Shown: positions 26,244 to 30,148, numbered from the stretch's first letter. The stretch: 64,000 nt of DNA from Candidatus Borrarchaeum weybense (GCA_019057385.1 JAHQJS010000007.1:523585-587584); one strand, 5' to 3'. Notes: generated by a model from the letters alone, not told the origin. Numbers and translations: made by a program.

Positions 26244-28586
26244 TTATAATTTTTCGGGTGTTAATTCATCATAAGAAGCATCTTCTTTGAAGAAGACTAC
26301 TTTAACTGCACCAAAATTCCTGAAAATATCTCTTGTAGCTTTTATACTCTTTGAGTCCATCATTTCTGCTTCAACAAAGACGGTTTTACCTAAAAAGGCC
26401 CCCATACGTCCTAAAGTCCCAATGATCGTTCCAACTGCTTCTGCTGAACTTAAACTCTCCAGTGATTGATATTCAAGGAGTTCTGTTTTTTCAGAATTAT
26501 CTAGTACTCTTCGAATAATAGATTTATCTTCAACAGACCAGTTGACCACGTCTAGTCCATACTTTTCAGCAACTTCTGGTAGCGATTGATTAATTCTCGA
26601 AATCATTTGCGTACGTAATTCTGGAATTATTGAATCTAGCCATTGAACATATAAATACAAAATCTTTCTACGAAGTAATCCCTGATTGTATTCTTTCTTT
26701 TCTTTTTCAATATCTACGACACGTGATTTTAGAAGTTGGCTTTCACTTTCTAATTTAGTCTCCAACTTAAGTAAGCGTTCTTTTTCAGATCTAGTACGTC
26801 TTAAATCTTCTTTAAGTGTTTTTTCTTCATTTACTAGCTCATTTATCCTTTTTTGACTCGATCCATCTTGTAGCGTTTTTACTTTTACTTTTATTTGTTC
26901 AAGTTTTTTATTCAATTTATTGATTTCACTTTGAAGACTTTTTGCTTCTTTTTCGAGTTTCTTGATGTCTATATCTTGCTTTTTGTCCTCTTTTGCTTCT
27001 TCAACCACTGAAAGGTTTTCTAATTGTCTTATCTTTTCAAGTACTTCTTTTAATTCTGATAATTTCTTGTTAGCGTCTTTGATATTATCCTTCAATGTCT
27101 TTAAGAACTTCTTTTCTAATTGTACTTCTTTATTGATTGAGACAATTTGGGACAATTTACCGCTACGATCACTTACTGCTTTAGCGTCCGTTTTCAGATC
27201 GGAAATATTTTTCTTAGTTTGAGAAATAGCCTCCTTATAGTGTGTTATATTTTCTTCTGCATAATTTAGCAACGCTTTTGATTCAAAAGAAGTAGTACAA
27301 ACCGGACAATTTTTAGTCTTTTTCTCCTTAAGAGTAGGCAGTATAACATCCAACGCTTTAATCATGTTTTTATCGCTTTTTATACTTGCTTCAAATTTGT
27401 TGATTTTCTCGCTTAGGCTCTTTAATTCTTTTTCTAGTGTTTTCTTTTCATTTTCAAGCTCTTTATCTGATAATTTTGAAATTCCTTGTTCTTTCATTGT
27501 TTTTATAAGCATATCTTGGTACTTTTTAAGTTTTAATTCACTATTTTTTTCTTTCTTCTCTAGATCAAAAATCTTTTGTTTTTGTGAATCTAATTCTTTT
27601 AATAGAATACCCGAAGTAAGTTCATCTTCCATCTTATATTTTTTAGTTAACTTTTTAATCTCATTATCTAATTTCTCAATTGATTTCCTGCATTCTTCCT
27701 GTTTTTCAACTTTCTCTTGGATATCTTCTTTTCTGCCTTCTAATTGCTCTTTTAAATATTGTAACCGTTTTTCCTTTTCTTTCAATAACGCTTGCGTATT
27801 TCTCTGTTCTTTTTTCATTGTTTGTAATTCATAATTTTGGCGATTGAACTTTTCAAGATCTTGTTGTATTTGACTTATCTTATCTTCATATTCTTCAATT
27901 TCTAGATTTAGGGTTGTTATTCTTCCTGTTTTCTCTTCACGAGATCCTTCTACTTGAACAAGTTTTTCTTGTTCGTTTTCTTGTGAATCAATTCTTGATT
28001 TTATGTTCAATAAACGATCATTTTCGATTTGGATAAGCCTCTCGAAAATTTTGCGTGTGCGAAGCAGTGTGGGGACAAGCGAACTTTCCTCAATCCGTTC
28101 TTGGTAGTTTTTTAAATTATCTTCAATCTTCTCTAGAAAAATTACGGAATTATCGAAATAGCTACCCTGTTCCGCACCAGATTCTTGAGCAAGGTAATTC
28201 AATACCTCTTCAGGAGTACCTGCAATTACTTCATCTCCATTTTCGAATAGACCCGAGTGAGTAATGCCTCCCGGCTCAATGATATGCTGAAGTGTGTATT
28301 TCCTCCCATCAATTTCTAAAAAGACCTCAACTTTTCCATCTTGTGTTTTTGTCTTAGAACTTTTTGGATCAATAATCTTTATTAGACGCTCGATAGGTGG
28401 ATTACCACCAAACACGGAGTTTAATGCTAGAAGAGATGTCGTTTTTCCCGAAGCATTTCTGCCAAAAACTATTACATCATCATTCTTGGTTGGAAATAGC
28501 ACTTCTGTTCGATTATGAAAACTACCAATTCCTTGAATTGCATATCCATTAACGATTATTTTAGGAACTGAGGAGTTCGTTGACAA
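26244..28586 (-). CDS. Rad50/SMC-like coiled-coil protein with a zinc hook and degenerate ABC-ATPase motifs
   Basis: Walker A GRNASGKTT, long coiled coils and central CPVC hook. C-terminal LSSAE replaces LSGGE and VFVEAEMMD replaces Walker B/D-loop. GGAGGT SD. Confidence 0.8.
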   Translation of the reverse strand: MSTNSSVPKIIVNGYAIQGIGSFHNRTEVLFPTKNDDVIVFGRNASGKTTSLLALNSVFGGNPPIERLIKIIDPKSSKTKTQDGKVEVFLEIDGRKYTLQHIIEPGGITHSGLFENGDEVIAGTPEEVLNYLAQESGAEQGSYFDNSVIFLEKIEDNLKNYQERIEESSLVPTLLRTRKIFERLIQIENDRLLNIKSRIDSQENEQEKLVQVEGSREEKTGRITTLNLEIEEYEDKISQIQQDLEKFNRQNYELQTMKKEQRNTQALLKEKEKRLQYLKEQLEGRKEDIQEKVEKQEECRKSIEKLDNEIKKLTKKYKMEDELTSGILLKELDSQKQKIFDLEKKEKNSELKLKKYQDMLIKTMKEQGISKLSDKELENEKKTLEKELKSLSEKINKFEASIKSDKNMIKALDVILPTLKEKKTKNCPVCTTSFESKALLNYAEENITHYKEAISQTKKNISDLKTDAKAVSDRSGKLSQIVSINKEVQLEKKFLKTLKDNIKDANKKLSELKEVLEKIRQLENLSVVEEAKEDKKQDIDIKKLEKEAKSLQSEINKLNKKLEQIKVKVKTLQDGSSQKRINELVNEEKTLKEDLRRTRSEKERLLKLETKLESESQLLKSRVVDIEKEKKEYNQGLLRRKILYLYVQWLDSIIPELRTQMISRINQSLPEVAEKYGLDVVNWSVEDKSIIRRVLDNSEKTELLEYQSLESLSSAEAVGTIIGTLGRMGAFLGKTVFVEAEMMDSKSIKATRDIFRNFGAVKVVFFKEDASYDELTPEKL

Positions 28587-28743
28587 TTCTTGCTACCTCC
28601 GTAATATTCTCCTCAGGCACTTTGCCAGATTGTAGTTCTTTTATGGTTTCAATAAATCCTTTCCTTAGAAGTTCAATATCTATAGGAAAATCCTTTGAAA
28701 CCTTAATTTTATTAAGTAATTCAATAATATCAGTCAAGCTCAC
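28561..28743 (-). CDS. Small helical protein (60 aa) overlapping the start of the SMC-like gene
   Basis: GGAGGT SD, GTG start, amphipathic helices; fills the gap between two co-oriented genes. Confidence 0.65.
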   Translation of the reverse strand: MSLTDIIELLNKIKVSKDFPIDIELLRKGFIETIKELQSGKVPEENITEVARIVNELLSS

Positions 28744-28750
28744 GAGTGTG

Positions 28751-30148
28751 CTACCTCCACTCTGGGATTATTTGCAGTTGTACTTTTGCTTTCATGCCTT
28801 CCTTTAGCCCAATACTTATTGCTGCCCTTTTTGGTATTGTTATTTCAAATCGGTGATTTGGATATCCTTTTCTGAATTCACGAACTTTTGTTTCGAAAAT
28901 GCCCCCACTGACGTTTAATAGTTCATATTTTTCGATAAGTGTTTTCACAATAGACAGCGCTTCACTTTGTGTTCGTAAATTTCTTGTAAACAATAATTTG
29001 TCTTTATTTTTTTGAACTTTTTGACTAAATTCCATTGAGTCAAGAAGGCGAATTTTTTGAACCGTATAAATACTATTTTCGCTAAATTCTGCCACTTTAT
29101 CTTCAATTTGCTTAAGTTGATCTTCATCTATAAGTTTTGGAAACTCTATGTTGGGATACACTATATTTACGTCGATATTAAAGTGTTTATTAACCTTTAA
29201 AATTCGAATATCATATGGAAATTTGACTACTCCCTTTTTCTGTAGAGATTCCTGTGCATTTTGAATCACATCATCCGAAGGAGTAATTAGATGAACATCC
29301 GAGATGCTAGTCTTTCCGATGATCACATTAAATACATCATCTTTTGAAAGAGATCTTTTCGCTTCATTTTCAATATACCATGAGTACAAACATACACTAC
29401 TTTGGCAATAGACAGTCCAAGAGCTATCTTCATGTTCTATAAATGCTAAAGGTTCAGTTTCGCATTGAGGACAAAGATATTTTTTTTCCTTTTCGTCTTC
29501 ATCTTCGATAATGCGTAGATAGGATTGTAATGCAGTCCAAATAGTTTCAGAAGCTGGAATGAGGCGAATCTCTACAAGTTTCTTAAGATATAGTATAATT
29601 TTCTTAGCTGTTGTGGACTGTTTTTTTTGGATTGTTCGTAATTGATGTGGGGGTATTGGAGAATCAATATCGATCAAATCAAGATTTACCAGCTTTAATA
29701 AATTTAAACTAGCCTTATCATAAGAAATTGACTTTTCTGTTTTTTTTAGAACTTCATATAAAGTAAATTTTCGCTTCTTTGTATTCAGATATTCATTTCG
29801 CATATATTCGTAGATTAAAAAGGTTTTTGTATCCTTTAAAGTATTTACTAAGTGATTAAATTCAACAGAAGTACTTAGATTGATATCTTCTGAGGAAATT
29901 GTATTGCCACTATCAAGATCGGTTATTAAAACAATTATTTCTTTGTTTTTGAAGAATAGCTGAACAAAAAACTTTTCCAGAATAAAATTATTTGCCAAGT
30001 TATTGAGTCTTTCTCTGAGTGAATGGATAGGTCTTCCAAGAATTTTTGCGGCTTTTTCCACTGAGAGACCCTTTTCTATCTTAATTAAATCTAGAATTTC
30101 CTGGTTTAGTCGTGAAGATAGGGTGCTTAAGAGTTCTGTTTCCTCCAG
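28751..30148 (-). CDS. Multidomain DNA-binding protein: two wHTH-like domains, Zn ribbon, C-terminal AbrB-like domain
   Basis: CTG start with GGAGG 8 nt upstream gives LSSRLNQEILDLIK...SVEKAAKILG...LRERLNNL. Also CPQC...CQSSVC and FEITIPKRAAISIGLKEGMKAKV. Confidence 0.65.
   Translation of the reverse strand: MEETELLSTLSSRLNQEILDLIKIEKGLSVEKAAKILGRPIHSLRERLNNLANNFILEKFFVQLFFKNKEIIVLITDLDSGNTISSEDINLSTSVEFNHLVNTLKDTKTFLIYEYMRNEYLNTKKRKFTLYEVLKKTEKSISYDKASLNLLKLVNLDLIDIDSPIPPHQLRTIQKKQSTTAKKIILYLKKLVEIRLIPASETIWTALQSYLRIIEDEDEKEKKYLCPQCETEPLAFIEHEDSSWTVYCQSSVCLYSWYIENEAKRSLSKDDVFNVIIGKTSISDVHLITPSDDVIQNAQESLQKKGVVKFPYDIRILKVNKHFNIDVNIVYPNIEFPKLIDEDQLKQIEDKVAEFSENSIYTVQKIRLLDSMEFSQKVQKNKDKLLFTRNLRTQSEALSIVKTLIEKYELLNVSGGIFETKVREFRKGYPNHRFEITIPKRAAISIGLKEGMKAKVQLQIIPEWR

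Follow-up and report, generated by a model that had tools for sequence, protein, structure and literature searches.

Results

Organization of the A-B-C locus

The window analyzed in this study is a stretch of 64,000 nucleotides (nt), contig C7:523585-587584, from the 4.18-Mb, 8-contig genome of Candidatus Borrarchaeum weybense; the sequencing runs listed for its source are of sediment metagenome DNA. Between positions 26244 and 30148 it carries three genes, referred to here as A, B and C, the last of which encodes a predicted zinc-hook coiled-coil ATPase. In all forms of life, proteins of the SMC superfamily serve to organize and repair chromosomes; Asgard archaea, among which Borrarchaeum is placed, are the closest known relatives of eukaryotes. 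A preliminary description of the locus had reported three tightly coupled genes, each with a Shine-Dalgarno (SD) sequence, and the open reading frame (ORF) listing and the sequence itself bear this out, all three ORFs lying on the minus strand as follows:

28751-30148, minus strand: gene A, about 465 amino acids (aa), multidomain putative DNA-binding partner
28561-28743, minus strand: gene B, 60 aa, helical protein
26244-28586, minus strand: gene C, 780 aa, predicted zinc-hook coiled-coil protein of the Rad50/SMC (ABC) superfamily

The stop codon of gene A (TAG, 28751) and the GTG start of gene B (28743) are separated by a 7-nt gap, and the end of gene B (stop at 28561) overlaps the TTG start of gene C (28586) by 26 nt. 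Gene B is preceded by GGAGGT at a distance of 9 nt from its GTG, and gene C by GGAGGT at a distance of 8 nt from its TTG, with this second SD located inside gene B. The SD of gene A, GGAGGAA, lies at 30161-30155 and is followed after 6 nt by CTG at 30148. The 26-nt overlap points to translational coupling of B and C, and judging from this arrangement the three genes appear to constitute one operon.

Motifs of protein C

The following motif positions were assigned in C:

28437-28463, minus strand: Walker A (P-loop), GRNASGKTT, C residues 42-50, intact
28128-28151, minus strand: Q-loop position, NSVIFLEK, C residues 146-153, no Gln
27297-27308, minus strand: zinc hook, CPVC, C residues 427-430, halfway along an antiparallel coiled coil
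26439-26453, minus strand: signature-motif remnant, LSSAE, C residues 712-716 (LSSGE in Sifarchaeum)
26355-26384, minus strand: Walker-B/D-loop, TVFVEAEMMD, C residues 735-744, no DE pair (FVEAE)
26283-26294, minus strand: H-loop position, FFKE, C residues 765-768 (VVFFKED), Lys767 in place of the switch His

These states are those given in the preliminary description (Walker A and CPVC present, signature LSSAE, and no Q-loop Gln, Walker-B DE pair or H-loop His), with which our alignments agree throughout. The Walker A motif is invariant in all orthologs and aligns with the P-loops of Rad50 and ASRP proteins. At the Q-loop position, Rad50s carry PQGE or RQGE where C has NSVIFLEK, of which N146, S147, V148, F150 and L151 are invariant. 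The same is true of E739, A740, E741 and D744 in the Walker-B/D-loop region, where the spacing from the strand to the D-loop Asp is 3 residues shorter than in Rad50, and of F765, F766, K767 and E768 at the H-loop position. Across the ABC catalytic set, C is therefore canonical only in Walker A and the D-loop Asp according to the alignments. The CPVC of C falls on the CPVC hook of human RAD50 in a hidden Markov model (HMM) alignment, and C427, P428 and C430 are invariant in the orthologs. In the AlphaFold2 (AF2) model the hook is flanked by helices spanning residues 170-421 and 433-674, and the head shows a succession of strands and helices that would fit an ABC head.

Conservation and distribution of the trio

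The preliminary description had left room for C being simply a decaying rad50, with no syntenic trio elsewhere or with intact motifs in its orthologs. Instead, the trio was present wherever the ATPase was found together with its flanks, namely in the window, in Candidatus Borrarchaeum yapensis (L013), on two metagenome contigs (L037 and L038) and in Candidatus Sifarchaeum subterraneum (L012). The nearest records of C are those of B. yapensis (89% identity) and S. subterraneum (34% identity). In the latter, the genes stand in the same order (483, 58 and 777 aa), A is 32-33% identical to that of the window, the B/C overlap at L012 8205-8230 is equivalent to window positions 28561-28586, and all flanking genes differ. 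Borrarchaeum and Sifarchaeum, both Asgard archaea, belong to one class in the taxonomy of the genome collection and to two candidate phyla at NCBI.

The orthologs do not have intact motifs: the non-canonical residues of C are invariant across the eight orthologs in the alignment. The ratio of nonsynonymous to synonymous substitution rates (dN/dS) is 0.17-0.27 for A, B and C among close relatives, and the reading frames are intact in all five loci; the trio is under purifying selection. Between the two lineages, identity is 49% and 43.5% in the two head parts of C and 26% in the coils. As the trio, its overlap and the odd motifs are shared at 34% identity, with these dN/dS values and with heads better conserved than coils, the trio is not decaying.

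The range of these genes is very narrow. A word-based search of 5.8 billion proteins yielded clusters from these lineages only, 10 for C and 7 for A, and an HMM search with C among 1.84 billion representatives returned two clusters below 1e-30. The next best matches, at 63 bits or less, were ordinary archaeal Rad50s, two DndD-like proteins and the Thermofilum protein OYT29911.1. The C gene was found in 3 of 201 sampled Asgard genomes, all of them Borrarchaeum and Sifarchaeum, and in half of the six genomes of the class, with both genera covered. The three class genomes without the trio are 69-77% complete and lack the flanking TPR gene as well, so its absence from these incomplete genomes of the same genus is uninformative. 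The presence of the trio in both genera suggests vertical inheritance. The trio is present once in the genome and has no paralogs there, and no relatives of A or C were found in viral contigs.

Family placement of protein C

No described family model (NCBIfam Rad50 and ASRP; PADLOC) claims C, a result which supports the earlier reading of the locus as an undescribed SMC-like complex. With Pfam, C gave a sub-threshold match to AAA_23 alone. The best NCBIfam model was ASRP (NF045487), at 79.8 bits (E 1.7e-22) against a cut-off of 300, with C covering positions 17-266 of 593, the N-terminal part only. The Rad50 equivalogs reached 26.6 bits at best (cut-off 1000), the others giving 20-23 bits (cut-offs 700-1087). 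The ASRP match was rejected as diagnostic because genuine Rad50s score higher than C on NF045487: ordinary Rad50s obtain 104-180 bits, and true Asgard ASRPs 307-374 bits over positions 1-591. When the N-lobe of C was compared by hhalign, the probability was 99.2% (E 8e-20) against a small Rad50 set and 95.8% against eight true Asgard ASRPs. Together with the hook, these comparisons place C in the Rad50/SMC superfamily as a zinc-hook type member with a Rad50-like N-lobe.

Foldseek comparison of the AF2 model of C gave Rad50 (7zr1, E 7e-14) as the top match, followed by Smc5/6, condensin, JetC, MukB and LmuB, with low TM scores that are due to the long coils. Atlas look-alikes, obtained with stored homologs as queries, were AAA_23/Rad50 clusters. 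With PADLOC, C matched LmuB (E 6.5e-17) and JetC, and the matches with E <1e-3 lie within residues 151-675; an LmuB or JetC identity was rejected, as these matches span the coiled coil and none covers the head. SMC_hinge had no match in C, which carries the zinc hook at its apex instead. Likewise, the Rkd4/arcadin-4 model (NF053563), on which ordinary Rad50s reach 36-190 bits, had no match in C at E ≤1.

In a tree of the heads, in which ASRPs are represented by Asgard ASRPs only (no ClsN or Sph), C has a long stem and falls among Rad50-like rows, at a distance from ASRP and SMC; it is weakly joined to P0019, which is the hypothetical protein OYT29911.1 (799 aa) of Thermofilum sp. ex4484_82. 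A well-supported branch (97/93) splits ASRP, ASRP-like proteins and SMC from C, and the approximately unbiased (AU) test of C and ASRP as a single clade gave p 0.086. The surroundings of the signature in C, QSLESLSSAE, resemble those in ASRP, QPIESLSDSE.

Asgard ASRPs were examined alongside C. They have no H-loop His and differ from one another in the residue that follows the Walker-B Asp (FVLDK, FVLDA, FVIDE). At three true Asgard ASRP loci (L020, L024 and L027, ~250-1480), a 233-239-aa AAA+ gene and an ORF of about 120-130 aa with no Pfam match precede the ASRP gene. ASRPs had been reported to have no conserved or consensus neighbors (PMC9389158).

Domains of proteins A and B

Protein A was divided into the following domains, wHTH standing for winged helix-turn-helix:

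~29894-30148, minus strand: wHTH1, ArsR-like; sub-threshold Pfam matches to HTH_20 and HVO_A0114 in 5 of 6 orthologs
~29663-29866, minus strand: wHTH2; VIA Z 7-8.4 to ArsR/HxlR/MarR chains, model residues ~87-200
29390-29473, minus strand: four-Cys zinc ribbon; C226, C229, C248 and C253 all invariant
~28913-29296, minus strand: CesT/YbjN/DUF2299-like alpha/beta domain, by fold comparison
28754-28897, minus strand: AbrB/SpoVT-like C-terminus; TIGR01439 E 0.021 and sequence pattern

The zinc ribbon and the AbrB-like end named in the preliminary description were thus recovered. Of the two wHTH-like domains that it had proposed, the second is supported by its fold, whereas the first is suggested by sub-threshold Pfam matches. 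A helical stretch lies between the second wHTH and the ribbon, and the C-terminal end is strongly conserved (KVREFRKGxPNHRxExTIPK). Between the lineages, conservation within A is highest in the AbrB-like end (49% identity) and in wHTH1 (40%). With Foldseek, A gave nothing below E 1e-3. The alpha/beta domain resembled CesT, SicP, YbjN and DUF2299 at a probability of 0.9-0.99 and E ~0.01 (Atlas TM 0.43), and the matches of A to ScpB were weak and non-significant (probability 0.57-0.66, E 0.045-0.075). By VIA, wHTH2 also matched the Wadjet JetABC chain 9qe0_E and the cohesin head-module chain 6qpq_D (Z 6.5-7.3). There is no paralog of A in the genome, and its domain combination was found nowhere else among the 5.8 billion proteins.

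Family searches gave no informative match for B. Its orthologs are 88-98% identical in the Borrarchaeum-like loci, and in Sifarchaeum a 58-aa ORF takes the place of B, likewise overlapping gene C by 26 nt and with an identical GGAGGT-8nt-TTG arrangement.

Likely start site and putative promoter of gene A

Two further features lie at the beginning of gene A:

30140-30165, minus strand: tandem ACTGGAGGAA repeat; copy 1 is the SD (GGAGGAA) and copy 2 the likely CTG start (30148-30146)
30206-30220, minus strand: putative archaeal promoter; purine-rich AGAAAA resembling a B recognition element, then a TATA box, TTTATAA (30212-30206)

The length of about 465 aa given for A in the preliminary description requires a non-canonical CTG start at 30148; the sole canonical start, GTG at 30061, would give 436 aa. 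However, this GTG reads GTA in the B. yapensis ortholog, and the 29 residues ahead of it, which are conserved, can be aligned to the Sifarchaeum ortholog with its ATG start. The greater length is therefore retained here, as gene A most likely starts upstream of the GTG, at CTG 30148. An in-frame TAA just upstream of the ACTGGAGGAA repeat (CAA in three relatives) puts the start in the window at or after the first CTG. The repeat is kept in all four close loci, and within it the SD and the start codon of gene A appear to be copies of one another.

The TTTATAA box is located about 45 nt further upstream of the start region. The promoter belongs to a block, at 30165-30225, that is almost 100% conserved in the four Borrarchaeum-like loci, and the sequence further upstream diverges, which is consistent with a promoter function of the block.

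Neighborhood and other SMC-type systems in the genome

The neighbors of the trio encode an RGP-type glycosyltransferase, an IS605 TnpB, a convergent TPR protein, an EncFtn-like protein, a desulfoferrodoxin-family protein, a CCG/Fe-S protein and SIS and ThiF proteins. The flanks consist of housekeeping genes that are syntenic between the two Borrarchaeum species, and the surroundings of the trio resemble neither a defense island nor a mobile element. Searches of A, B and the neighboring genes with Pfam and PADLOC detected no effector domain, whether nuclease, Toprim, Cap4, TIR or of another type. IS605 and IscB elements occur near the trio. An intact IS605-type TnpB gene (OrfB_IS605 plus a Cas12f-like TNB domain) lies at 23315-24607 between the RGP glycosyltransferase and TPR genes; the B. 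yapensis locus, syntenic in other respects, lacks it.

A separate canonical mre11-rad50 locus, which the preliminary description had proposed to look for, does exist. An Mre11 gene (412 aa) adjoins a Rad50 gene (953 aa), the product of which gives a full-length match of 260 bits to Rad50 models and has the canonical LSGGE, DE and His. A second Mre11 locus (L014, G000:C6:815000-832000) contains HerA, Mre11 and an 853-aa Rad50-like gene. At this second locus a 400-aa ORF (9263-10465) stands between mre11 and the rad50-like gene, its N-terminus resembling the RRXRR/HNH (IscB-type) protein encoded at window 17361-18464; a 421-aa ORF upstream of herA, at the expected NurA position, had no NCBIfam match. 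A canonical SMC of 1182 aa, with a hinge, is encoded elsewhere (L043, G000:C7:289000-306000). A 339-aa AAA+ gene precedes its gene, and downstream, where scpA and scpB would be expected, there are ORFs of 245 and 176 aa. The ScpA and ScpB Pfam models matched nothing in the whole genome, including these two ORFs; since two small ORFs do follow smc, this failure probably reflects divergence. In view of the two Mre11-Rad50 loci and the hinge SMC, the trio is an addition to the canonical machines and not a replacement for them.

In a further region (L016, G000:C4:402000-419000), a 1063-aa SMC-like protein (ORF 6916-10107) with only 110 bits on the SMC model is encoded directly before a 950-aa ORF (10282-13134) with an Hsp70/actin-like N-terminal motif. 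This pair may be another uncharacterized SMC-like module.

Discussion

A putative DNA-tethering complex

We tentatively interpret the trio as a lineage-specific, Mre11-independent complex built around C, a highly derived Rad50-type protein that would act as a DNA tether recruited by A; our confidence in this falls somewhat short of even. C would fold back into an antiparallel coiled coil of about 35-40 nm and join another C by way of its CPVC zinc hook, and its split ABC head could still bind nucleotide by means of the intact P-loop. With three catalytic elements lost (Q-loop Gln, Walker-B DE pair and switch His), ATP hydrolysis is expected to be slow or not to occur, and the head might then serve as a nucleotide-gated latch, not as a motor. 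A would dimerize by its AbrB-like swapped-hairpin end and bind DNA with its two winged helices and zinc ribbon, bringing C to the DNA, and B, translationally coupled to C, could be a small helical connector on the C head or at the base of the coiled coil. Such a complex would tether or bridge DNA for chromosome organization or maintenance, alongside the canonical SMC and Mre11-Rad50 and not instead of them.

A bolder version of this proposal, which we regard as doubtful, is that A, B and C represent a previously undescribed class of SMC-superfamily complex, an Asgard-specific third solution beside hinge-SMC/kleisin and Rad50/Mre11. Here the head of C would be a nucleotide-binding, essentially non-hydrolyzing latch that A, as a dedicated multidomain adaptor, loads at specific DNA sites, and B a mini-connector taking the role of the Mre11 helix-loop-helix or of the kleisin N-helices.

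Several observations weigh against the tether interpretation. The AF2 model of C has a pLDDT of 68 overall, with confident coils and a head below 60, so that the motif assignments rest on sequence alignment, and the model of A has a moderate pLDDT of 64. The C-lobe of C alone is not recognized by hhalign (9.9 versus Rad50, 1.7 versus ASRP), whereas the C-lobes of ASRP and Rad50 match each other at 97.5%; the C-lobe may no longer form a nucleotide sandwich at all. E739 or E741 could still serve as catalytic base, so that C may hydrolyze ATP after all. The 58-aa Sifarchaeum ORF is recognizable as B by its position, size and overlap and not by its sequence (BLASTP E 0.11, not significant), and the trio is known from just three species-level genomes and a few metagenome contigs. 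The physical interaction of A, B and C, the binding of DNA, the impairment of the ATPase and the cellular role are inferences.

Other explanations of the locus

C could instead be a divergent ASRP with a ClsN-like job in chromosome compartments or a Sph-like job in cell shape, A and B being lineage-specific accessories. Its best NCBIfam match by far is indeed the ASRP model, ASRPs also have a zinc hook (PMC9389158), the Asgard ones likewise have no H-loop His and a variable residue after the Walker-B Asp, the surroundings of the signature are alike, and the AU test leaves a clade of C and ASRP standing. Yet the score of C is far under the cut-off, is confined to the N-terminal part of the model and is exceeded by ordinary Rad50s, hhalign favors Rad50 over the Asgard ASRPs, the 97/93 branch separates ASRP, ASRP-like proteins and SMC from C, and the Asgard ASRPs sit in a different conserved module (AAA+ gene, ~120-aa ORF, ASRP). 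We consider this explanation rather unlikely. A cytoskeletal or cell-shape function like that of Arcadin-4 or Sph3, with A as a transcriptional regulator and not a structural partner, seems to us very unlikely. It would fit the resemblance of A to a transcription factor (wHTH, AbrB) and a conserved upstream promoter block that could hold an operator, and Arcadin-4 has been described as derived from Rad50 and linked to crenactin, and the SMC-like Sph3 of haloarchaea as affecting cell shape (PMC9389158; PMC10869688). However, C has no match to the NCBIfam Rkd4 model at E ≤1, no actin or cytoskeletal gene is found nearby, A by far exceeds a simple autoregulator in size and complexity, and the tight coupling of the three genes is conserved.

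The preliminary description had allowed for chromosome organization or defense. The first of these functions is kept in our interpretation; the second is less likely than it had allowed, given that there is no effector, no defense island and no viral relative. A defense module analogous to Lamassu or Wadjet, in which C would sense viral or plasmid DNA and A and B would be regulator or effector, is in our view distinctly unlikely, even though LmuB and JetC are among both the PADLOC and the Foldseek matches of C, the trio has a very narrow taxonomic range and there are IS605 and IscB elements in its vicinity. Regulators of toxin-antitoxin and defense systems, moreover, commonly contain AbrB-like and wHTH domains. 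Against this, the PADLOC matches cover the coiled coil, the flanks are syntenic housekeeping genes, the occurrence in both genera of the class suggests vertical inheritance, and the trio is present in single copy without paralogs. That C is a decaying rad50 paralog beside an unrelated regulator, so that adjacency and odd motifs would be meaningless, is hardly credible and is contradicted by the data. The non-canonical catalytic motifs and a C-lobe that profile comparison cannot recognize are what one would expect of it, but the frames and dN/dS values speak for constraint, the odd residues are invariant among orthologs of 34% identity with heads more conserved than coils, and the trio and its B/C overlap have been kept while the flanks differ.

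If the tether interpretation is true, the trio would be a third, Mre11-free and kleisin-free partnering of a zinc-hook coiled-coil ATPase, and C a naturally occurring protein whose hydrolysis motifs have almost all been exchanged and are still strongly constrained. C could then help to separate the roles of nucleotide binding and hydrolysis in Rad50/SMC mechanics. The very narrow range, Borrarchaeum and Sifarchaeum, limits the general importance of the system.

Comparison with known systems

Literature searches found no described family or paper covering the trio. Archaeal Rad50 is like C in having a split ABC head, a long antiparallel coiled coil and a CxxC zinc hook at its apex; the N-lobe of C is Rad50-like, Rad50 is its top Foldseek match, and the nearest proteins outside the C family among the 1.84 billion representatives are mostly archaeal Rad50s. 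In contrast to Rad50, C has no Mre11 in its operon, the Mre11 genes being located at two other loci beside other Rad50s, and its partners are a wHTH/zinc-ribbon/AbrB protein and a 60-aa protein. It also differs in lacking the Q-loop Gln, the Walker-B DE and the H-loop His, in its LSS[A/G]E signature and in its unrecognized C-lobe.

ASRPs (ClsN/coalescin and Sph1-4; Yoshinaga et al. 2022, PMC9389158) share with C that they are archaeal, Mre11-independent, SMC-related zinc-hook proteins that coexist with SMC and Rad50, and the Asgard members have also lost the switch His and vary at the catalytic Glu. However, Asgard ASRPs have about 610-630 aa and C about 780 aa, C reaches a quarter of the ASRP cut-off with its N-terminal part only, it stands apart in the tree (AU p 0.086), and the gene modules differ.

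The SMC-kleisin-KITE complexes (SMC-ScpAB, MukBEF and Wadjet JetABC) resemble the trio in combining a coiled-coil ABC ATPase with small partners, one of them a tandem-winged-helix protein. The KITE/kleisin analogy rests on the weak ScpB fold matches of A (probability ~0.6), and wHTH2 matches 9qe0_E and 6qpq_D. The differences are that C has a zinc hook in place of a hinge, that no kleisin-like protein was recognized and that B has just 60 aa. To our knowledge, the additional domains of A (zinc ribbon, CesT-like and AbrB-like) do not occur in KITEs.

LmuB of Lamassu is, like C, an SMC-like coiled-coil ATPase, and its structures appear in the Foldseek list of C. The PADLOC matches are confined to the coiled coil, the trio has no LmuA effector or LmuC, and its context is not that of a defense system. 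As to Wadjet, no JetD Toprim or other effector was found nearby, and A and B had no PADLOC match.

The Thermofilum protein OYT29911.1 is like C in its CPLC hook, short C-lobe, VSRSE signature, missing switch His (AYFFSTR) and equally shortened spacing between Walker B and the D-loop (IIFDEYELLD), and unlike C in retaining the Walker-B DE pair. It is a weak sister of the C family in the head tree (90/82), and its similarity to C outside the coil is marginal (N-lobe E 3e-5; C-lobe not significant). The pairing of the two long branches may be an artifact; alternatively, this protein, the only near neighbor of the C family that is not Rad50-like, may be a crenarchaeal cousin. Set beside all of these systems, the superfamily and the hook of C are known, and what is new is the set of partners, a loss of almost every hydrolysis motif that has itself been conserved, and a C-lobe that profile comparison does not recognize.

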